DNA of 64,000 bases from Girardia tigrina (lineage: Eukaryota): contig MQRK01245821.1 of assembly GCA_001938485.1 (NCBI GenBank), positions 1-64,000 of the forward strand, written 5' to 3'. Positions within the stretch are counted from its first letter, which is position 1. Each line of letters begins with the position of its first letter. Shown here piece by piece: positions 11,925 through 60,066 of this stretch. The position numbers and the translations under genes are program-made. The notes beneath the pieces are model-generated. The model searched no databases. It saw only the letters and a list, made by a program, of their open reading frames with translations, and had not been told where the DNA came from.

Positions 11925-13250
11925 AGGTGTGTCCACTAAAAAAGTGCACAAGTTTTAAAACCATTATAACTTTTTAATGTAATATTATCTAATTTCGTAA
12001 ATTTGGAATTTAAATATTTGTTTTAATAGGTTAGAAATAGTAAAGCAGTTATTTAAAATTTTTGGTTTAATTTGGTTTAATGTTTTATTTTAGAGACAAT
12101 TATAATGATTTCAAAACGACATAAAGATATAATAAATTTTTTTTAAACGAACAGTAAAAGTGAGACTGTGACAAAGTTTATTGGCATTCATTTTTCCAGA
12201 AGAGGTATATATGCAATAATACAACGCTATGAGAAGACCGGCAGCATTGAAAGAAAAGTAGGAAGTGGAAGGAAACCTGTTAAAATGACGTCAGANNNNN
12301 NNNNNNNNNNNNNNNNNNNNNNNNNNNNNNNNNTTGGACAAAGTGTGAGAAAGTTAGGTAGAGAAATGAATGTTTCAAAGTCTTACGTGCATAAGATGCT
12401 CAAGACTAATAACATAGTGTTTCGACAGAGGAAAGAAGCCCCAAAGGTTACTCCGACATAGATTATTCGCCAGAAAACCAGGTTGCAAAATCTCGCTAAA
12501 TTAATGTGGAAAAGACCAAAACCGACTTCGTACTTGATGATGAGTCGTATTTTACACTCACCGGAGCAATGACATCGGGTTATTATGTGGACAAAAAGAA
12601 GTTCGGTGATGTATCTGATAATATTCGCCTTAAATTTCGAGAGAAATTGACAGTAAAAGTTTTGGCTTGGGCAACTGTTTCCAGACGAGGCATTTCAAAC
12701 ATGTACATCAGGAAATGGAAATCTGTATCTTCTAATTCGGATATTTATATCTCCGAGTGCTTAACGAAGCGTTTGCATCCTTATCTGAATGAGAAATACC
12801 CAGCTGGTCGCTTCATCTTCTGGCCAGATCTTGCTTCTTGTCACTACGCCAAAGCCAGTCTGAAGTGCTTAGAGGACAACAAAATTCCATTTGTCAAAAA
12901 AGATTCGAATCCACCTTGTGCTCCCCAAAAACGCCCAATTGAAAAGTTTTGGGCTCATTTAAAGGAGAAGGTGTATGGAAAGGGTTGGACTGCCGATTCT
13001 GAAGACCAGTTGATTCGCAGAATCAAAACTAAAGCAAAGCAGTTTAACAATTTATATTTTAGGACATTATTTGCAAATTTTAGACAAAGAATAATACTTG
13101 CTAACTCTTATGGCCTTAATAGTTTGATATAATAAAATAGTTATTGTGTTATTATGATCTAGTCTTTGTTCAGATTTCCGTCAATTTGAAAGTCTAATTA
13201 AAAAGTTATGATGGTTTTAAAACTTGTGCACTTTTTTAGTGGACATACCT
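11925..13250 (+). mobile_element. Full-length ITm DD37E DNA transposon with inactivated transposase
   Basis: 54-bp TIRs (11925-11978 / 13197-13250, 2 mismatches) flanked by TA on both sides. Confidence 0.93.
12105..13132 (+). pseudogene. DD37E transposase pseudogene
   Basis: N-terminal HTH with GSGRKP; DDESYF; FWPDLASCHY; NPPCAPQKRPIE with exactly 37 residues between the second D and the E. Stops near 12144 and 12459, frameshift near 12505. Confidence 0.9.
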
Positions 13251-14119: not shown

Positions 14120-14427
14120 ACCTGAACAGACGTACGAAAACATTTTTCAATGATTCAAAGTGATGATTTTCATGTCAGGGAGCAAGAAAGTTCTGGTCAA
14201 CCAATATTACTTTAGAGAAAGAATTTTGATTTAAGGGAAACTCTGTTCAAACAAAAGAATCTGTCAGATAGTTTAATGTCTCTCTAATGAGTCATAATAA
14301 AACGTTTACATTCTTTGAAAATGATTCAGAAAAAGGAAAATGAATACCATATGACCTAAATGAAGTTAAAATTAAAAGTAGTTTATTTTTTTGCAATCCA
14401 ATAAATCCGCTTTTATATCAAAATGTA
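14120..14427 (+). pseudogene. Old mariner (mauritiana-like) transposase, N-terminal part
   Basis: FQ*FKSDDFHV..SGQP and KGK*IPYDL resemble WFQRFKSGDFDV and GRWVPHEL. Continues at 16870 after the nested insertion. Confidence 0.6.
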
Positions 14428-15326
14428 TGTTGGGATCAGTGAGCTTTTCCTTCAACTCGGCATCGGACCTATTTATAGCGCCAGTACCGAGGCGAGCGAA
14501 AAAAAACTCCTAGAATCTAAAAACCGAAAAATAAGAGATTATTTTAAGGAATATTTCAGAATAATGTTTGTTGTTTGGTATGTTGTTTTAGGATTGTTTT
14601 TCCACCCCCCCCCATATGGAAAATTAATTTTTAAATAATTTTAATTAATTGATTAAACATTTGAAAACATCGGATTATTTAATCAATTTAAAAAATTTTA
14701 AAAACTTTTTTTCAAATTAAATAAATATACCATAAAGAATTTAAATTTTTTTGAACTTTAAAGTCTAAATTATTTTGTAATCGAGTTATAAATTAAATTG
14801 TAATTTAAATTTGTTTGAATAATAAAACCCTTACAAATATAATTTAAAATTTATCAATCAAGAACGATTACTAATTACAAAAGTTTTGTGGAGAATTGTC
14901 ATAATGGTGATTCAAATGGTGATATCAATAAATGTATTGAAAATCCAATTAGCGTTCCTAATAATTATACTAGTATAATTTGTAATATTAATTAATTAAA
15001 AAAAGAAACTTTTAATTGATTTTCTCCCTTGGATTCTCTTGAATTGGATATTTTCTCGTGAGAAAATCGGTGTATTGATTTTTAAGTCTTGTCTTGAACT
15101 GGGAACTCGCCATCCTTGCGTGGTCCCTGACGAATGAAGTTTTGATTGTTTATGATAACCGTGACAATTGTCCGGTTATTGGCTGAGTGAGTTTTTGGGT
15201 AAAAGAAAATTGTATCAATTCGTCGAAATTTATGCACTTATTAAAATTTATTTTCATCGAATAAATTTTTTCAAAAGATTTTTTTTTATTTTGGAGTTTA
15301 TGAAGGATGGAGAGCATCATCAAGGC

Positions 15327-15500
15327 TGCTGATCTGTCGATCGATAATGGCGGTGCTTATAGTGCCTGCCAAGACTGTTGACGATCAAGTAGCGATTATT
15401 AACTTGCTCCTAAAGAAAGTCGAACTCTACTGATCTGTTGATGGACATCGTTAGGTGCTTATAGTTGCTGTCGAGACTGTAGACGATCTGGTGGCGATGC
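15327..15500. repeat. Two diverged ~70-bp direct repeats, ~102-bp period, inside copy 1
   Basis: ctgatctgt.gat....ggtgcttatagt..ctg.c.agactgt.gacgatc occurs twice and is absent from copy 2. Confidence 0.7.
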
Positions 15501-15635
15501 AAAAGTGTTGTCTGGTGTTATCATGGAAAGAGCATTTGTTTCGCCTGCCTTTTAACCTTTTGTTTTTTTTCTTTTCCTTTAAAATTCACGCATTGCCATC
15601 GTTTAATTCCTTTTCAATGCAGTAATAAATGCACC

Positions 15636-16389
15636 AACTGTCCAGAAAAAACAATTGAATAAGAAGAATATATGAAGAATTCAATTCCTTTATCGGTTTA
15701 TAAACCGATCGTTGACAAATACATACGGGCTGAACAAACACTAAAAGATTTACGGAATGAAGCCATTGACATGAGGATAAAACAAAATGTCAATAATTAC
15801 CACAAGAAGATCGTTGACATAATCTCCCAGGAATTACCGAAGGTAATCCAGAAAAAGGTATCTGAGGTTGAAGAAATAAGACGAATGAAAATAATGTCGA
15901 ATGAAAATCGCCGGATCCGAGTTCTAAGATTTATGGATCAATCACAAAGAGAACATGTTGTTATCTTCCACTCGTATCATCAGCAGAGCTCAGAAACGAT
16001 GTGAACAATGAAAATGGAGCGCTCAATTATTTAAGCAAACCGAAGTTGAATTGAAAAAAATTTATGAACCTGAGCACGTAGGCTTTCATCTAGAATATGC
16101 ATATATTTTTCATCTAGATCACTTTTATTCAAAGGTGACTGTTGGACTTGAAAGTAACAAGGAATTTATTCTACCATCGACTTTAATCTCTCGCAAGAAT
16201 TCGATAAAGACACAAAACTGGCTAGATTACAAAGAGAAACACCAAGCGCTACTAGAACTCCGGGAGCCTCCGTTATCGATCACTAGTGTGCAGGGAAGGA
16301 ATTTATTAGTTTGTCTAATCTGGACCACTGATGGCGATGGTTGGAATTGTTTTGATTTACATTTATTTTGTTTTCTTATTATGATTTAA
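15636..16389 (+). pseudogene. Decayed ~250-codon ORF of unknown function inside the TG...CA element
   Basis: ORF pieces 15672-16004 and 16051-16389 align with 52960-53700. Several differences between the copies are synonymous third-position changes. Confidence 0.6.
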
Positions 16390-16522
16390 TGAAACAATGT
16401 CTATATCTAATTTTTTCATGTTCTCTTAGCTTTAATTTTGTTATTAATTTGGTTATTCATTATAACAAATATAATGATCAAATAGATAACACGTTGAGAA
16501 ATAAATATATTATCGAAAATTA

Positions 16523-16739
16523 CCGTATTTTCGTGCATATAACTCGCAAAATATATTCCTCTCCATGGACATTTTGGGTAGGTAAAATATCACATTATTC
16601 CATGTATATCATCGTGAAATGTTAGTTTCTATCGTATAAAATATTTTCAGTATATCCCGTCCATTTTTATACCCTGTGAGTGGCGTATGGCGAAGATAAA
16701 ATCACACATTTTCCGCAGATTATCTGCGTGAAATTACTG
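16523..16739. mobile_element. pogo/Tc2-like MITE nested in the TG...CA element
   Basis: Imperfect TIRs ccgtattttcgtgcatataa / ttatctgcgtgaaattactg with TA on both sides. Copy 2 shows the empty site near 53835. Confidence 0.75.
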
Positions 16740-16869
16740 TAAACAGAAGTACCCTAAGCCGACTTTCATATACTTAAATACCATTAAATATAATATTCTG
16801 AAGAACCCAAGAGGTACTTGATTAATTTCACTGGCGAGATAAAAGGGCCAGATGTGGTTAATTGATACA

Positions 16870-16995
16870 TGTAAGCCCCAAACCAATCAAATCAACACCA
16901 AAACGAAATATTTATCGAAGAAAGGTTATTTTGTTCATTTCGTGGAATCAGAAAGGATTTATGTAATATTATCTACTTGTACCTAATAAAACAAA
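16870..16995 (+). pseudogene. Continuation of the split mariner transposase
   Basis: PIKSTPKRNIYRRKVILFISWNQKGFM*YYLLVPNKT resembles mariner STARPN.FGKK.MLCVWWDQ.GVIYYELL.P..T. Confidence 0.65.
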
Positions 16996-28678: not shown

Positions 28679-29956
28679 TAGTGTGTATAAATGACCCATC
28701 TGAGTTTTTGTTATATTTTAAATAAAAAGCTCTTTTTATTATTTATAAAATTTGTGGAAAAAAAGTTAAAGAATATTGAGAATGCTTTCAATCCCAGAAA
28801 AACTTTTTTATGTCATTTTATATGAAAACATAAAAAAACCTGGTGTTCATTAATGATTACTCAGTTATTGCCATTTTCATCAAATAGTATATGGTTATTA
28901 TATATTATTCTTTAGCAAATGAGGAATCTGTTTATATCCTAGAAGGTTCTACGATATTCCAGATTTTTTTCAGATTTACAATAAAAAGTAATTAATTAGT
29001 GAACTGAATAACTATCCAGTATAGTAGGCCTAGAATTGCCGGAGTCTATAAAGTTTCCAGTTGTTGTGCTTCAGAGTGAAGGAAACTCAACAAGACACAT
29101 TTCCAAGAGACTGGAAACCAGTCAGTATACAGTTTCCAGAACAATCAGGTTATATAAGAACTCAAACACCTTTATTTTGAAGAAACAATCAGGTCGAACC
29201 AAGACTCTTTCTGATAGAGTTATGAAGTCTCTAATGAGAGATCCTGACCTCTGTGGAGCTCTCAAACATTGCTCGAGACTTTCACCAGGTGAATGTAAGT
29301 CCTTCTACAATTAGAAGAAGATTAAGGAAAGAAGGCTTGAAGTCCCAATCCATCGGTTATAAACGAAGAATCACTGCAGTTCAAAAGAAAAAGAGACTGA
29401 CTTGGGTAAGGCAATACAAGAATTTCTCAGGCGAAAATTGGTTTAAGGTTATCTTCTCCGATGAAGCAAAATCTGATCTATTTTTTTCTCGAGAGAAAAG
29501 AATCAAGATAAAAAGGAGGAGTAATGACCTTTGATGTGTACCAAGAGACTGTAAAATTCCTAACTTCAAAAATGGTCTGCAACTGTTTTTCTGATAATTG
29601 AATTAGAAGAATTGAAAATAATCCAGAATTATCTTAAATGGGATTGCAGAAAAATAATTCTATGTTTTAGAAGGATAATGTTACTTGTCACAATGCCAAA
29701 ATTGTCAAGATGTACATGCAAAGTGATGGAATTCTTGTAATGGAGTAGTCTCCTAATTCTGCAGATCTAATTCCGATCGAAAACTTGTGGTCGATTGTGA
29801 AACTTAGAATTGTTAAGCGGGGTACCTCAAAATAAAGAGCAGCTCACAACGTTTTTCACAGAAGATTGGGAAAAAATTACCAAGACAAAGAATCGTTCTC
29901 TAAACTGATGAAATCAATGCCCGAGAGGATTAATAAACTGTTTAAGATAATGGCGG
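28679..29956 (+). mobile_element. Degenerate Tc1-family DD34E transposon (right end lost in gap)
   Basis: HTH with SGRTK; VSPSTIRRRLRKEGL; WFKVIFSDEAK; DNVTCH...SPNSADLIPIENLW with 34 residues between D and E; many stops and frameshifts. Confidence 0.88.
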
Positions 29957-42255: not shown

Positions 42256-43407
42256 TTAGGGTGAACCAAAAGTCTTCGTATTTTTTATTAAAAATTTAAA
42301 CATAATTTTAAAACAAATAAAAAACATTTAAGTTTCAAAGTAAAGGCTATTTGAATCTATAGCTTTAATACATCTATGGGCAAGTGGTGCGATCCCGCTG
42401 CGGTACCAATCCTTGTTCTTAGAAGCGAAGAACTGGTGACACCCGTTTTCAACCTCGGCCAGATTATTGAAGCTGCGACCACGAAGAAAATGTGCCATAG
42501 AGCAGAGAAGGTGATAGTCGGATGGCGCAAGATCCGGACTATACGATCAAAGTTGGGCATTTCTTGCCAAGTGCCGCATACATTCGATCAAGTTTGGTAC
42601 GACCATTTAAAAACAAGCTCGAAGTGAATCACGCCTTCAAAATTCCACCAAACACACAAAAGTGCCTTCCTTGAGAAACGATCTCGTTTCGCTACCGGTT
42701 TCGCCATTTTTAAAGGGTCCAACCATTGATTTTGTTGGTCTGGATTACTGAAGTAAACCTACTTTTCATCGCAATTTACAATTCGACGGATGAAACGGTC
42801 ATCGCGCGGATTTTCAAGCAATTTTTGACAGGTTTCGAAACGTTTTTCGGCTTGAATTTGTGTCAATTCATGAGGCACTTCTCGACATCATCTATTGACC
42901 TTGTCAAGAGCGTGAAGGTATCGTACAATGGATTTTTGAGGAATATCGAGTTCGGCCGACAATCTGCGAGTACTTATTGACGGATTTTTCTCCACGGCTT
43001 CATTAATTGCTTCGGAATCTACGGTGATAGGTCGGCCTGAACGTGCATTGTCTCCGAGGTCAATGTCGCCTTCGTTGAACCTTTTGAACAAATTTTGTGC
43101 AGTACGATTTGAAACCACATTATCGCCTTCAACATTACATATCATCTTTGTTGCTGCAGTTGCGTTTAAGCCCTGTTTCCAGTAATGGCGTAAAAGAACA
43201 CGAATTTCAAAATTTTCCATGATTTTTCTAAAAGGCCATAAAAATTATATTAACGACTAATTAGAAGTTTTAATACATATAGTGATAGAGCAGTTCAAGA
43301 GCTTTAAAAATATATATCACATGTATATAAAATATCTTTATTTGGTAATACGAAACAATTGAACAAAAAGACGTAGAAAATACGAAAATACTTTTCGTTC
43401 ACCCTAA
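42256..43407 (-). mobile_element. Defective mariner (1152 bp)
   Basis: TIRs ttagggtgaaccaaaagt / acttttcgttcaccctaa with TA flanks. Transposase from 43220 shows RSGRP, EVPHEL, IVNCDEK, LLCVWWNFEG and YSPDLAPSDY; the DNARPH region is deleted. Confidence 0.93.
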
Positions 43408-47425: not shown

Positions 47426-48587
47426 TTAGTTTGGGGGAAAAAGAAATCCATTATTTTTGGCGTGAAATTCAAAACTTTATTTAACATGTTTTGGATTTTC
47501 CTCTTGGAGTCAAATATGCACCGTTTTGTTGTATAATTAGTTACCATTTTGAAGGTAGCTTCATAATGCCTCTCTCGTAGAAGTCTTGGTCCTTATTGGC
47601 GAAAAACTTATTAGCGAAATGGTGGATGCATTAAAACTTCCAAACCAAGGTCCCTGAGTTTCTGTCGAGTCACTACAGACGTATGTGGTCTGGCGTTGTC
47701 GTGATGGAACACAACACCTCTTCTATTGGCCAATTCTGGTCGTTTCTCATCAAGCGCTATCTTCAAACGGTCAAGTTGTTGACAGTACAGATCTGAATTT
47801 AGTGTTTGGCCATACGGAAGCAACTCATAATAAATGATTCCTTTCCAGTCCCACCAAATACACAGTAGAACCTTCCTCGCCATTAGTCTTGGTTTGGCGA
47901 CCGTATAAGGTGCTTCACTGTACTTTGACCACAATTGTTTTCGTACAATATTGTCGTATGTAACCCATTTCTAATCCCCAGTAACCATCCGTTTAAGAAA
48001 TGGGTCGATTTCATTTCGTTTGGCAAAGGCTTCGCAGATGGAAATTCGATCCATCATGTTTTTTTGGTTTTAATTGGTGTGGAACCCAAACATCAAGTTT
48101 CTTTTTGAATCCTGCTTTGCCCAAATGGTTTAAAATAGTTTTGTGGTCGATCTTCAGCTCCTGTGCGATGCTACGACGACTAAGATGCCAGTCAACTTCG
48201 ATCATTGCCGAGATTTTATCGACATTTACAACGATAGACCTGCATGTGCGAGGTGCATCTTTAACATCAAAAATGTCTCCACGGAATCGACGAAACCAAA
48301 ATTGCGTGTAATTAGCCGTTACAGTATTGACAACATAAACACCATTTGCAATAACAGCCGCCTGGCTTGCATTTTCGCTTTTATGGAATAAAAACTGTAA
48401 AATGTACCGAATTTTTTCTTTGTTGACTTCCATTTTTAACACCCTGTAACTCAGAACTGAATAAAGAAAGCAAAACATTTTTTGTGAAATTACTGTGAAA
48501 TGTTACCTTGACAAAGAGCATAAATTTGAAATTGTTTGATCGATAAATAATGCATTAAAATAATGGATTACTTTTTCCCCAACCTAA
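47426..48587 (-). mobile_element. Defective mariner, mellifera-subfamily-like (1162 bp)
   Basis: TIRs with TA flanks; MEVNKEKIRYILQF, LDVWVPHQL, KVLLCIWWDWKGIIYYELLP, FHHDNARPH and LMHPP; YSPDLAPSD segment deleted; frameshift near 48060. Confidence 0.95.
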
Positions 48588-49579: not shown

Positions 49580-50717
49580 GGTAACCAGACAATTCGACAC
49601 AAATTTTTTAATTCGACATTTTTTTAATGGGACAAATATTTTATTTCGACATATTTAAATTTCAATTAATTTTTTTTAATTCAACAAATAACTAAAATGA
49701 AATATTTTCATTATTACTACACATTTTTTGAAACTCGACATTTTCAATAACTATATTTTTAGTTAGACTAATGAGTTATATCAATGAAAAAATATCAATT
49801 TAATATGAAAAAAAATCAATTTTTATGAAACAATTTTTTTTAATACGACACATTTATTAAAAAATAATTAAAATTAAAAAGTAAAAGTTAAATCTACAAT
49901 AAGACGACACAATTTTTTTAATTCTACACATTTATTAATTCGACACAGTAAAAGTTAATTTTTAACATTTTATTCATTGCAAATTAGCTAGCCAACGCAA
50001 GTATTTCAGTTTTTCATCATTCGATGCATTCAAATTGTATTCTTGCACAACCATTGCAATAGCCTCACTCAATGATACATATTTTTTCTTTATAACCTCA
50101 GGGCGACTTGAAAGAGCATTTGCCAAAGTCAGTCTATGACAAGCTATATCTCTTCCAAGTCCATCAAGCAAGGTCCAAACACTGGGGTGGCTGCATTGAA
50201 ATATGGCATTAAGAGCATTGTGGAAACCTTCACAACAATTTGTAGTTTTTGGTGTCTGCTCACCAGCAGAATCGAAATGGTTCCAGCATTTTATTGGAAA
50301 CTGAGGAGCTCTACCAAGAGCACCCTCAATATAAGTCGATAAGAAATATGTGAGAATTATCATTCCTCATCATGGAATGTTGCAGCAAGAATATCAAAAA
50401 CATTCTTGACATCAGTGTCAGGCACAAAAGCCAAAGCACAAAGTGATTTTAGCCTAAGTTTGATATCAATGTTGCTCTCATATTCATTCTTTAATCCAAC
50501 AATGTTGACTTTTCTGATAAGACTTTGACAGAGGTGAAATTAGCAACCTCTAACATCTACATAGAAAAATGAAAAAAGTTTTGAATTAAAAAAAACTAAT
50601 CGAAATTTAAAAATGTCGAAATAAAATATTTGTTCCATTAAAAAATGTGTCGAATTAAAAAATTTATGTCGAATTGTCTTGTGTCGAAAAGTACGTGTAT
50701 TGAATTGTCATAGAACC
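49580..50717 (-). mobile_element. Non-autonomous Mutator-like (MULE/Phantom-type) deletion derivative
   Basis: 9-bp TSD ttatattca / ttatataca (1 mismatch); GG...CC ends with long TIRs built of ttcgacac repeats; transposase C-terminal half (GC*FHLCQ, ALAFVP, TTNCCEGFHN, HPSVW). Confidence 0.92.
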
Positions 50718-52415: not shown

Positions 52416-53970
52416 AGTTGAGATCGGTGAATTTTTCCTTCACCCCGGCCTTGGACCTATTCATTCAGCGGGCAATGAGGCAAGCGAAAAAAATCCTCTA
52501 ATCTAAAAACCGAAAAATAAAATATTATAATTATAGTTTATAATATAAATTTATTAAAAAAAGAAACCTTTAATTGATATTGATCCTTACATACTGTCGA
52601 TTTGGATATTTTCTCGTGAGTAAATGGGTATCCTGATTTACTTAGTCTTGTCTTGACCTGGAAACTGATTATCATAGGGTGGTAACAGTTGAATGAAGGT
52701 TTGATTGTTTATGATAACAGCGAGAATCATCGGGTTATGGGATATCAGAGTTTTTGAGTAAAAGAAAATTGTATAAATATCTACCAAATTTTTGGATATA
52801 TTCAGATTTCATTGCATATTTTCATCGAATAAATTTTGTCAAAAGAATTCTTTTTAACTTAGTGCAGTTATGAATGAAACAAAAAAGAATGGCGATTAAA
52901 TCTGAGTGGCGTTGCACGAATTGCAAGAAAATAAAAGTAAATGTACCAAGATGAGCGATGAATTGTCCAGAAAAATGATTGAATATAAAGAATATAGGAA
53001 TAATTCAGTTCTTTTATCGGTTTATAAATTGATCGTTTGACAAATACATACGGGCTGAACAAATATTAAAAGATTTACAGAATTATGCCACTAAAATGAG
53101 GATAAAATAAAATGTCTTTAATTACAACAAGAAGATTGTTGAGATGTTCTCAAAGGGAGAACCGAAGATAATCCTGAAAACAGCATTTTAGATTTGAAAA
53201 AAAGAAGACCTGAAATGTTGAAAGAAAATTACCGGGTCCGAATTCTACGATTTATGGATCAATCACAAAAGAGGATATGTTGTTATCTTCCTCTCGTATC
53301 ATCAGTAGAGCTCAGAAACGGTGCGAACAATGAAAGCGGAGGACACAATTATTTAAACAAGCCGAAGATGAATTAAAGAAAATTTATGAACCTAAACACC
53401 TAAGCTTTCAGTTAGAAAATCCATATTTTTCCATTAAGATCCCTTTTATTCAGAGGTTACTGTTGGACGTGAAAGCAACAAGAAATTTATTTTATCATCG
53501 ATTATAATCTCTTGCGAGAATTCGGAAAAGAAACAAACTGGCTAAATTACAAATAGAAACATCAAGCTCAAATAGAACTCCGGGATAACCTCTGTTATCA
53601 ATCCATCACCTTGGGGCAGGGAGAGGAATTTATTAGCTTGTCCGATCTGGACGATGGATGGCGATGGGTTGATTATTTTAATTAAATTTTTTTTGTTTTC
53701 ATATTATGATTTAATAAAACAATACCTACATCTAATTTGTTCATGTCTTTTAGCTTTAATTTTGTTATTAAATCATGATAAAAAGTAAAATGACAAAATA
53801 GAGAACATGCTGTGAAATAAATATATTATCGTTAACTAAATAAAAGTAGCCTGAGCCGACTTTCATGTACTGAATATCATTAAATATAATATTATGAAGA
53901 ACCTAAAGAAATACTTGAATCATTTCACTGGCGGGATTAAATGGTCAGATGGGGTTTATTGGGTTCGATA
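52416..53970. mobile_element. Second, diverged copy (~1.55 kb) of the unclassified TG...CA element
   Basis: Colinear similarity to 14428-16869 from gttgagatcggtga to tcactggcgggattaaatggtcagatg; lacks the copy-1 insertions; termini decayed. Confidence 0.8.
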
Positions 53971-55687
53971 TAGAGACATTTCCAAATAATAATTTGGGTC
54001 AATGTAGTCTCATATCCAAACACTCACTAAAACATATTGATCTATTTAAATAAAAGCAAAATAATAATAATACACTTCAATTATTGTCATTACAGGAAAA
54101 AATGTCAAATATCTAAATTCTAAGTGTGAATTTTCTGATGATTGAAGTCTTCTCGAAGAACATATACAGGTTTCTTCAATTTTTGATACTCCTGACCTGA
54201 AATTTAATGAACTATTCAAAAACTTCAAAAAATCTATACAGTAGAGATGACAGACATACCATTGGAATTTCTAAGGGAACTTGCAGGGTTAAATGTATTA
54301 ACATCATCAATATGAGATTTACAACATTTATTAATACCACAAGCGCATTCACTATCTGATATCTCTCTTGATCAATATCTTTCTGAATTCATACTAATTA
54401 TTTTCAATAAATGAAAATCTTTTAATAAAAATTATTAATTCTAAAGAATCTAATAGGTTAAAAAAAATCTTAACATTTTTAAAAAAGTACATATTAAATT
54501 AATATATTAAAATTTTAAATTACATTAAAAATTAAATAATACATTCAAAAATTATTTTAAATCTTTTTAATTTAAAATTCAATTAAATTATTTTTAATTA
54601 GTAGGAATCAAAGAAAATATTAATCATCCATCTGTGTAGGAGAGGCACAATCCGAATCAACATACAACATGCACAATATCAACACACAATTCAAAACATT
54701 CCTCACAAAAGGCACAAACAACTTTCCAGTGAAAAAATGTAAAAAGGATAATAATGTAGTCGGAATAAAAAACTATGCAGTAAAATATCTAAAACTATGG
54801 AAGTCGCTATTACTTATGTCAGTCCCTTGAAGACATAGTGGATTGACCATAGTTAAATAAAGTTTTTTTTGAAGATTGAATTTGATTTGAATTATTCTAA
54901 TTTATATTTGATTGTAGATTAATTGAATTTTTTATGGTCAGGAAATGATAGAACACAAGCAGTCGCCTCAGCATATTCTGGTACTTTTTAGTACCACGTA
55001 TATCTGCGAGGCAACATTTCCAAACCTTGTATTTTCCAAGAACAAATGTCAAACATAAATAACAAACAAAAATCTCGAAACCGAAATAAAATTTTTAGTA
55101 TAAAGTCAGCTAACTGTTTTTCAACACTTAGTTCCCAATATGAAATACCAAGGAAATCCCTGGTGAAAGTTTTTTCTGGTATTAGTTATCTCGTATCATT
55201 TTAAAATAGCATTTATTTTATTCTTACATTTGTTTTTTCTATAATTTACAATCACAAAAAATATCTTCGCTTGATTAATCAAAGCTGTCAGATTGTTGAA
55301 GATTTTGTATATTGGCTTTATGGAAAGGTTATGTACCTCTGGTGTACGTCCAGCCAAGGAGACCCTCACTTCAAGTGGTATTACTGTTGTATTCATTGCA
55401 GCAGTATGAATATATCGGTAACACAAAATCATTTTGTAACTGATGCGAACCATCTTTTCAATGAATAATTCTGAATATTAGAACAACTTTAAATTAGTAT
55501 TTGCTATTTCCCTTTTGGATCTGATAAAAATGAGATGTTACACTTTACTGATAGTTTGATACAGATTGATAACTATCTCAGTAGGATCTAATTGATTTTC
55601 ATTTCTTTCCACATTCTTATAATACTTCAAAATATTTTAATACAAATGGTTTACTTAGTTTTTACTTAGGGGCTACATATAAATATA

Positions 55688-58440: not shown

Positions 58441-58637
58441 GCGTGCCCCTTGCATGCTGCAGCCGGTCGGCATCACCTTCCTAAGGTTCCTCGCCCCAAA
58501 AAGTTCAAATTGATCATATTATTTGTCAAATATGTTGCATTTTATTCTGTACTCATTTACAACGTTTCACGATTTACTATCCTATTTACTGTTAAAACTA
58601 TTGTTCGGTGAGAAACGAAATGTGACTCTTCAAACCT
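58441..58637 (+). repeat. 197-bp perfect inverted repeat, left arm
   Basis: Exact reverse complement of 59870-60066. Confidence 0.97.
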
Positions 58638-59869
58638 TGCCGACCTTTATACTCGCAATTACTACATCATGTGAACGTTTATTTGTACGAACAACTAAGA
58701 GTCAACTAAATTCTATCGTGAAAATTAATTTAACAAATTCCAAAATAAAACAATTTAACGAACTCAGAAATAAGCTAAGTCAAAATGTAATAATCGATGT
58801 CCGGCTAAATTTATATCGTCAACCACGGTAATTGTCGAAACGAAATTATATGATTGAATTCATAACTGCCGAAGACAACGATCCTTTTCATTTTGGTAAC
58901 AATTTCCCTTTTATAAATCTATTCATTCATATTTATTTTATCTACATACATATTCATTTATGTCTATTATTTACAATTTCCCATCTTACAAAATCACTCG
59001 TAGATTTATTTATTTACATTTACACTTATTCATATCTAGTACTTACAATATTATTATTTCTATGTTTCCATCTCAAAACTATTAACAATAATCATCAATC
59101 GGAAACTTTACTCAAATATGAATTAGCAAATTAATTACAAATAAAATCATCATTAAAGTAATTGTTAACGAAAAGGATTAATTAGCAAAAGAGGATCATT
59201 AAATCTTTACTCAAACTATAATTTACAACAAACTACAATAAGTCAACCAAAAGAATTAATAAAGGAATATCATTAAACCTTTACTCAAATTATAAATTAT
59301 GATAAACTACAATAAGTTAATCGAATTTAATTATTAATGGAAATGGTTCGATCTCTAAACCAATCTAATAATATATTAATCAAAATTCTTACAAAAGGAA
59401 ATTATTAAATTGAAATTCTAAAATCATCGCGAAAGCAAAACATTGTTATAAAGTGTGAATTATTACAAAAGAAAACCATTAAATTAAAATATTATAACAT
59501 TACCATGAAATCAAAACATTATTATGAAACATAAAGCCAAACTAATAAAATGATTAAATGATTGAATTTAAGTCATCGTACTATTGTCAAATATAAAACA
59601 TCATGGCTGAAACATCATCTAAGGGGAAATATTATAAAATATTATTATAAACCGAGTTAATTAAATAATTGGATTTAAATACTCACACTATTATCAAATA
59701 TAAAACCTCATAAACTAAAATATTATTAAAGAGCAAACATTATAAATTATAAACCGAATCAATAAAATTAATCACATAATAACTAAATTCAAATGATTAT
59801 AAGTTTGCCATTCTTCTCATCAATCACAACTATTTACACGAATTTAAATAACATCAACTACATAACATC

Positions 59870-60066
59870 AGGTTTGAAGAGTCACATTTCGTTTCTCACC
59901 GAACAATAGTTTTAACAGTAAATAGGATAGTAAATCGTGAAACGTTGTAAATGAGTACAGAATAAAATGCAACATATTTGACAAATAATATGATCAATTT
60001 GAACTTTTTGGGGCGAGGAACCTTAGGAAGGTGATGCCGACCGGCTGCAGCATGCAAGGGGCACGC
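59870..60066 (-). repeat. 197-bp perfect inverted repeat, right arm
   Basis: Exact reverse complement of 58441-58637. Confidence 0.97.

Follow-up and report, generated by a model that had tools for sequence, protein, structure and literature searches.

Positions 14428 to 16869 of contig MQRK01245821.1 from Girardia tigrina hold a dead, decayed solo long terminal repeat (LTR) of a gag-env-pol Ty3/gypsy retroelement, and its value lies in the family to which it belongs and not in the copy itself. This copy (copy 1) lies in the 64,000-nt stretch of DNA that was analyzed (positions 1 to 64,000 of the contig, hereafter the window), in an AT-rich contig of 27% GC. We are highly confident that the solo LTR holds a real gene. 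What is new is a selected, intron-preceded orphan gene inside the LTR of an env-bearing Ty3/gypsy lineage, whereas the kind of parent element and the sag-type layout are known. Taken as a whole, a dead solo LTR with a selected gene that encodes a nuclear dimeric regulator from spliced RNA is a picture on which we are evenly balanced. The original prediction, made from the window sequence, had proposed either the gene-bearing long LTR of an undescribed retroelement or a stand-alone cassette mobilized by an integrase. The first proposal was borne out, with family LTRs that precede a tRNA-Lys primer site and gag, env, and pol and that follow integrase, and the cassette became superfluous once LTR pairs and the primer site had been seen. 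The word undescribed held for the gene in the LTR but not for the parent, since gag-env-pol Ty3/gypsy elements of the flatworm type are already known; the undescribed part is therefore the gene in the LTR and not the whole system.

A genome search in the 1.43-Gb assembly returned 5831 first-look candidates, in line with the expectation of more copies than the two in the window, and the 40 copies that were scored are the basis of the intron counts given below. A 26-base pattern of the left end occurs 443 times in the assembly, haplotype duplicates included. The two window copies belong to subfamily A. Subfamily B (2.06 kb, with open frames) was found by protein search with the open fragment of copy 1, and subfamilies C (1.9 kb; 124 of 141 matches at 68–95% identity) and D (12 of 148 matches at 83–96%) by searching with two homologous proteins; four loci suggest a fifth subfamily, E. 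The termini are TGTTGG...CCAACA in subfamilies A to C and end in ...CTAACA in D. Target-site duplications (TSDs) were counted in 36 rows with both ends, 33 of them solo-like, a census that contains one mis-started duplicate and does not include the window copy. An exact 4-bp TSD stands at the outermost end in 22 of the 33 solo-like rows (27 with any candidate end) and a 5-bp TSD in none, compared to a 4-bp match in 12 of 1056 random pairings of ends (1%); the TSD length read at copy 1 is thus found across copies. AATAAA lies 23–35 nt from the right end in subfamilies A, B, and C, though not in D. About 190 nt from the right end, subfamilies A to D share a conserved block that has a TATA-like core and may be a TATA box or promoter. 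From the positions of these two signals, the LTR gene would sit in U3.

Judged by the sequences that adjoin these LTRs, the parent is an envelope-carrying gag-env-pol Ty3/gypsy retroelement. The LTR right end is followed in 14 contigs, two of them with subfamily A, by a primer site that is complementary over 18 of 18 nt to the 3′ end of host tRNA-Lys(CTT) plus CCA, after a spacer of ~9 nt that is longer than in other LTR families of the same genome. Behind the primer site, matches were found to Retrotrans_gag, Monjiviricetes_fusion (PF24664, E 3e-40), protease, reverse transcriptase (RT, with Ty3 RT as the best PDB match), RNase H, and an integrase zinc domain. Gag comes first, and integrase is last in a pol order of protease, RT, RNase H, and integrase; in one locus (L128), gag and a PF24664 envelope are followed by a protease motif in the env frame. 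The segment between protease and RT gave no Pfam match, and the env segment, when searched in the protein collection, gave no relatives, near or longer, which is weak evidence. On the other side, an integrase tail upstream of the LTR left end is common to 3 of 30 sampled left ends, the other 27 having no shared upstream flank, and its junction with the LTR was located at 18 exact places, before B-, D-, and E-type LTRs. A single contig (L185) contains a 5′ LTR, primer site, laminin piece, pol, and the start of a 3′ LTR, with 3 differences in 177 bp between the two LTRs (by eye) and the rest of the 3′ LTR within an assembly gap. No unbroken full-length element was found in the fragmented assembly. 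Paired copies around gag-pol, with a primer site and purine tract, had been proposed as a check; the LTR pair of L185 and the primer site were found, but no purine tract.

Two observations sit poorly with this assignment. No run of 10 purines precedes the LTR left end, where the purine-tract search gave 0 places, and subfamily A could be linked to the primer site and to ~400 nt at the start of the leader, but no link to pol was seen. Because all other features of a Ty3/gypsy LTR are present, we read the absent purine tract as an oddity of plus-strand priming; priming of the plus strand and end trimming may be unusual in this family. At the 3′ junction (18 places), a run of six C's plus five more bases stands directly before the LTR. 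An LTR-like CCAACA end before a tRNA-Lys primer site occurs at 230 places in the assembly, most with a 4–5-nt spacer, and 29 of 30 primer-site loci sampled from those places belong to other LTR families. With the spacer set to 0–4 nt, a primer-site pattern gave 3 matches, which were left unused because the real spacer is longer. Gag-pol pieces downstream of another copy (L062) were assigned to other elements.

Other coding sequences were observed behind the primer site of several copies. About 3.6 kb of laminin coding sequence (Laminin_B, EGF_laminin) directly follows the primer site in L123 (G000:C118803), and 588 bp of laminin coding sequence, 92% alike to that of L123, follows it in L185 (G000:C228438); there, this sequence stands in place of leader, gag, and env. 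The laminin pieces look like host mRNA captured by the element, and LTR-mediated retroposition is reportedly described in a published study (PMC5131818). A NOMO-like coding sequence in the leader of L126 (G000:C176986), ~400–1300 nt behind the primer site (weak Pfam match to NOMO_6th, E 0.002), is a probable second capture. An unbroken, intron-less D-2-hydroxyacid dehydrogenase frame of 535 aa (L179:3796-5400, minus strand; G000:C195015), which we take to be phosphoglycerate dehydrogenase-like (PHGDH-like), is located ~500 nt ahead of the 3′ tail and LTR of the element, in the orientation of that element, and is possibly captured, or merely adjacent to the element. The leader of L124 contains a 60-bp tandem repeat before gag, ~1870–2210 nt behind the primer site, that is open as a repeated peptide. 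A different leader behind the primer site is common to six loci (L082, L121, L122, L125, L127, and L128), and, judged by eye, a piece of it appears in inverted orientation close to the 3′ junction in L140.

At least four subfamilies retain the gene of the LTR, at 43–52% protein identity. Natural copies provided 14 distinct open frames of 256–270 aa (10 from B, 3 from C, and 1 from D), and none was open among the subfamily A copies examined; as many open frames were chosen for being open, these counts allow no intact fraction to be derived. Between subfamilies, third codon positions differ by 0.49–0.60 and second positions by 0.26–0.34, nonsynonymous divergence (dN) is 0.33–0.52, and synonymous divergence (dS) is 1.5–3.6 or saturated. 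DNA-only alignments gave a between-subfamily dN/dS of 0.10–0.25 in frame versus 0.76–1.8 in the two shifted frames. Within subfamily B, dN/dS was 0.23–0.42 by NG86 versus 0.49–0.95 by YN00, and because of this disagreement selection inside one subfamily is less clear. As far as the sequences can tell, the LTR gene is real and under purifying selection between subfamilies.

An intron precedes this gene. All subfamilies have a pyrimidine tract and AG 1–11 nt before the ATG, and subfamilies A to D have a GTAA donor ~250–400 nt upstream. The GT-AG intron just before the ATG is missing in 6 of the 40 scored copies: 361 nt were lost exactly in two B copies (L060 and L076), and the loss in four A copies is exact (L058) or lies within a base change or T-run by eye (L027, L040, and copy 2 of the window). 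Exon ends differ between the A and B intron-less copies, and intron loss has therefore recurred; another large deletion, in L161, does not follow splice sites. The simplest reading of the intron loss would be reverse transcription of spliced element RNA. Mouse mammary tumor virus (MMTV) proviruses lost the rem intron via spliced cDNA, according to the available part of the source (PMC11998498), a scope that applies to the papers cited below as well unless stated otherwise. Coverage of the LTR and its open reading frame (ORF) comes from contigs of two metatranscriptome runs and of three further runs that are presumed to be RNA.

The intron also houses a hairpin of ~70 nt. Subfamilies A, B, and D have two such units, whereas the examined copy of subfamily C has a single one. 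Five of six folded units had z-scores of −4.0 to −7.5 against shuffles, and in an alignment of 31 units 87.6% of cells are paired, with a covariation reached by 3 of 500 shuffles. Rfam gave no match in three LTR loci.

For the protein encoded by the LTR, Pfam gave nothing at curated cut-offs, whether searched with the fragments of the window, with four sister ORFs that are open, or with 23 aligned members, and a PDB sequence search gave only weak matches to the occludin coiled coil. A low-confidence model gave no Foldseek match at E ≤ 0.001 in PDB or BFVD. Protein searches returned 6 matches by words and, among 1.84 billion representatives, 7 matches, all members of the LTR-protein family and none longer than 289 aa. 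By these comparisons the LTR protein is an orphan family. Its AlphaFold2 model is all-helical, with a mean pLDDT of 61 and a confident N-terminal helix. The best-conserved stretch is a basic motif, in general form SR-x-KRREQRKRK, that was present in 18 of 18 full-length sequences, none of which showed a membrane segment (highest 19-residue hydropathy ≤1.08); the acidic C-terminal tail is conserved too, as is a C-terminal short motif. When two copies were predicted together, a parallel coiled coil formed over residues 7–87, with a score of 0.54 compared to 0.00 for the best of three controls, agreement between runs in at least 49% of contacts, and a pLDDT of at least 51. Among solved dimers, 21 of 30 microbial and 17 of 29 eukaryotic ones (7 of 16 from animals) passed the mark used, and among single chains none did (0 of 23 and 0 of 30). 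The prediction supports a coiled-coil homodimer, with the basic helix ~55 residues after the coiled coil.

A mechanism that would join these features starts with insertion, on which integrase would have made the 4-bp duplication, as is established retroelement biology, and with tRNA-Lys, which would prime reverse transcription. Recombination between LTRs would have left the solo copy, which would then have decayed and taken two insertions. In active elements, spliced RNA from the LTR would encode a soluble protein of ~258 aa with a predicted N-terminal coiled coil and an arginine/lysine-rich motif, and this protein would bind the hairpin retained only in unspliced RNA and favor export or use of the full-length genome. 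That the LTR protein is a nuclear regulator of its own element is, in our estimate, roughly a matter of equal weights for and against, and a Rev/Rex-like protein in particular is a tentative reading. A Rev/Rex-like role is favored because the product would be made only after splicing, carries an arginine-rich motif, and is accompanied by a structure that only unspliced RNA would contain. It is rather doubtful that an invertebrate Ty3/gypsy lineage independently evolved the control circuit of complex retroviruses, with intron, RNA response element, and Rev/Rex-like protein, entirely within its LTR.

Several results weigh against such a regulator. The contigs from RNA libraries cover the LTR evenly, including the intron, with no joint at the predicted acceptor, and because they lack a splice joint they cannot be told from DNA; that they do not cover the leader carries no meaning. 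The covariation of the hairpin is modest and consists mostly of one-sided G-U changes, which CpG decay can mimic, and RNAalifold kept only 8 pairs. Intron-less copies without the hairpin are still fixed in the genome, so a hairpin at the intron site is not strictly needed in cis, unless these copies arose by cDNA conversion. All sequences contain a loose export-signal pattern, whose position differs between B, C, and D. Confidence in the model of the monomer is low (pTM 0.25), and the dimer test may be passed by long coiled coils on general grounds.

The LTR protein could instead be a DNA-binding transactivator or anti-silencing factor, comparable to foamy-virus Tas or to an anti-silencer of transposons, that acts as a coiled-coil dimer on the LTR, which we consider rather unlikely. 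The predicted parallel coiled-coil dimer with a separate basic helix and the positionally unconserved export signal would suit such a factor, and PIWI silencing of LTR elements in planarians (PMC8532177) would favor a counter-measure. However, no DNA-binding fold was found in Pfam, PDB, or BFVD, and the G-U-type changes in the hairpin fit plus-strand RNA. In bZIP proteins the basic region adjoins the coiled coil, whereas here the basic helix lies ~55 residues beyond it. If the protein acted in this way, the palindromic unit would be a DNA site or small-RNA precursor; the reading as a transactivator or anti-silencer partly overlaps with nuclear self-regulation. An unlikely role is that of a cofactor for particle structure or trafficking, such as a coiled-coil adaptor of Gag or Env, or of a factor acting on a host pathway, as is proposed for the extra domains of Burro and for MMTV Sag. 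The long helices and the conserved C-terminal short motif, a possible dock for a partner, would be suitable for this, and related planarian elements carry host-interacting domains (PMC6431247), but the protein has no membrane segment, unlike Sag (PMC11998498), and conservation is strongest in the basic motif, a pointer to the nucleus or to nucleic acid.

It is very improbable that the frame is a fragment of a captured host gene that is carried unused. Capture of host coding sequence behind the primer site does occur in these elements (laminin and NOMO-like), but no longer or unrelated homolog was present among the 1.84 billion representatives, purifying selection extends across subfamilies with saturated synonymous sites, and the top genome matches examined were in LTRs. 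A host gene for this protein, single-copy and with several exons, was not seen. Hardly credible is a 2-kb unit that is a stand-alone non-autonomous cassette or a derivative of a Ginger-type DNA transposon, for although TGT...ACA ends with a 4-bp TSD, a mostly solo occurrence (27 of 30 sampled left ends without shared upstream flank), and a weak 25-nt inverted match near both ends of copy 1 would agree with it, the inverted termini measure only 5–7 bp, intron loss requires an RNA step, and the unit flanks gag-env-pol on either side and adjoins a primer site that matches its tRNA perfectly, so that L185 largely refutes it. Ginger-type transposons have long terminal inverted repeats and their own integrase-like transposase; with inverted termini of 5–7 bp only and no transposase in the unit, this candidate was dropped once the family ends were known.

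By gene order the family would belong with the flatworm GAG-ENV-POL Ty3/gypsy elements (Smed_errantivirus_1-6 and relatives; PMC13524379), which share the order gag, env, pol and a Monjiviricetes-type fusion glycoprotein. In that group ENV is of HSV/gB type with a characteristic cysteine pattern; a copy of the family envelope without its N-terminal part, compared by eye, has a motif in common with the listed ectodomain segments, close to their end. For the six Schmidtea mediterranea elements, the available text lists LTR and primer site as 'none' and mentions no LTR gene (PMC13524379). Burro/GYPSM1 (PMC6431247) likewise has env in frame between gag and pol, and where Burro has a dUTPase-like domain between protease and RT, the family has a segment at the same position, a likeness by position. 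Burro exceeds 30 kb and has an ORF of ~4,900 aa with MATH, BIR, BCL2, and ankyrin domains, and its accessory ORFs are internal, not in the LTR (PMC6431247). None of these extra domains was seen in the partial family copies, and the family element is estimated at roughly half the size of Burro.

The closest layout is that of MMTV sag (PMC11998498), a whole gene inside the LTR that is found in both LTRs and in solo LTRs, as in this family. Sag, however, comes from a vertebrate retrovirus and is a superantigen in the form of a type II membrane protein, whereas the LTR protein of this Ty3/gypsy lineage would be soluble, has a basic motif, and is unrelated in sequence. Rev, Rex, and Rem (PMC3856414) are small accessory proteins from spliced RNA that carry an arginine-rich motif, self-associate, and have a structured RNA element in unspliced RNA; the LTR protein has such a motif and a predicted dimer, and the intron hairpin is a candidate for the RNA element. 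Rev, Rex, and Rem are listed for retroviruses only in the available text (PMC3856414). The LTR protein differs from them in having no sequence or fold match, an export signal that is not fixed, and a long parallel coiled coil. ORF0 of rice Retrosat2 (PMC3485330) is, like the LTR gene, a lineage-restricted, fast-evolving ORF under purifying selection, but it is a second ORF upstream of gag-pol, whereas the LTR gene has its own intron and lies inside the LTR. Two further papers (PMC11410931 and PMC8532177) do not mention an LTR gene in their available parts, and the literature, as available, contained no account of this LTR protein or layout in Ty3/gypsy elements, with Repbase and Grohme et al. 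2018 outside that scope.

LTRs are regarded as non-coding, and their solo forms as remnants with regulatory function. Since this lineage keeps a selected gene in its LTR, each solo LTR is a potential gene copy, which parallels MMTV sag but outside retroviruses. The family adds an orphan protein family that is new, allows the balance between spliced and unspliced RNA in Ty3/gypsy elements to be tested directly, and bears on whether accessory regulators like those of viruses preceded Retroviridae or emerged independently of them. Such genes would escape annotation pipelines restricted to the sequence between LTRs. If a control circuit in the LTR proves true, hundreds of open-frame solo LTRs could regulate or restrict the element in trans as dispersed host-borne genes.

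Returning to the window, the exact TGT...ACA ends of copy 1 with tgta on both sides were as first read, with tgta followed by TGTTGGG at 14428 and ACA followed by tgta at 16869. The family right end is ...AAAA(T/C)CCAACA, and other copies that share the TGTTGGG start extend ~145 bp further to the right; copy 1 lacks ~140 bp just inside its right end and retains the last few bases and the TSD. Its 2442 bp include two later insertions, a typical copy measuring ~2.0 kb. The features of copy 1 are as follows.

14424..14427, plus strand: left target-site duplication tgta, read in the sequence at the end
14428..16869, plus strand: decayed solo LTR of subfamily A (copy 1), from genome copies and the family TSD census
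14543..14963, no strand: later insertion of an unrelated AT-rich repeat, missing from other copies, with 67–74% matches to unrelated flanks
15290..15622 (start approximate), plus strand: remnant of the LTR intron, donor lost in copy 1, pyrimidine tract and AG at the end
15322..15394, plus strand: hairpin unit 1, predicted RNA stem-loop, z −4.0
15423..15496, plus strand: hairpin unit 2, decayed in copy 1, z +0.4
15623..16331, plus strand: broken LTR gene of copy 1, start region missing, 11 stops in 238 codons, frameshifts
16523..16739, no strand: later insertion like a miniature inverted-repeat transposable element, TA-flanked, with worn inverted ends
16829..16855, plus strand: block conserved in subfamilies A to D, ~190 nt from the family right end, with TATA-like core
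16870..16873, plus strand: right target-site duplication tgta, following the ~140-bp loss just inside the end

A 25-nt inverted match of 76% was also observed between 14461–14485 and 16830–16854, in conserved blocks near the LTR ends; it is weaker in subfamily B (by eye).

The second colinear copy that had been reported is real, with blocks 79–83% identical to copy 1, but ends at ~54072 and not at 53970. The similarity between the two copies is limited to the element and therefore does not reflect a segmental duplication. Copy 2 has the following features.

52416..54072 (about), plus strand: second solo LTR of subfamily A, intron-less form, with worn ends and a possible CACT TSD
52858..52872, plus strand: exon-exon junction immediately in front of the ATG, without the intron and its two hairpins
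52870..53660, plus strand: broken LTR gene of copy 2, 5 stops in 241 placed codons

The decayed frame described in both copies was thus confirmed, with codons placed on the frame of an open sister copy; 12–16 apparent frameshifts per A copy are inflated by alignment across 30% divergence and are not usable as counts. The excess of synonymous differences claimed between the two copies proved weak, at 21 of 65 single-base codon differences, a dN/dS of 0.75, and a codon-position test of p=0.36, as is expected because the copies decayed after insertion. Selection on the frame, barely visible between the window copies alone, held between subfamilies, and comparison of the window copies with subfamily B gave codon-position p-values of 7e-4 and 1.5e-4.

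Elsewhere in the window, no host gene was recognized among 14 frames scanned. A 1.6-kb stretch at 58441–60066 has perfect GC-rich inverted repeats of 197 bp, with no obvious TSD and no long recognizable frame. Gypsy-like RT and Tc1/mariner transposase fragments lie at 2651–2956, 12500–13129, 29012–29531, 42891–43244, and 47614–48502. Finally, a 1.1-kb element at 49584–50682 carries 102-bp inverted repeats and a transposase fragment without a Pfam match, which is presumably Mutator-like (MULE-like).

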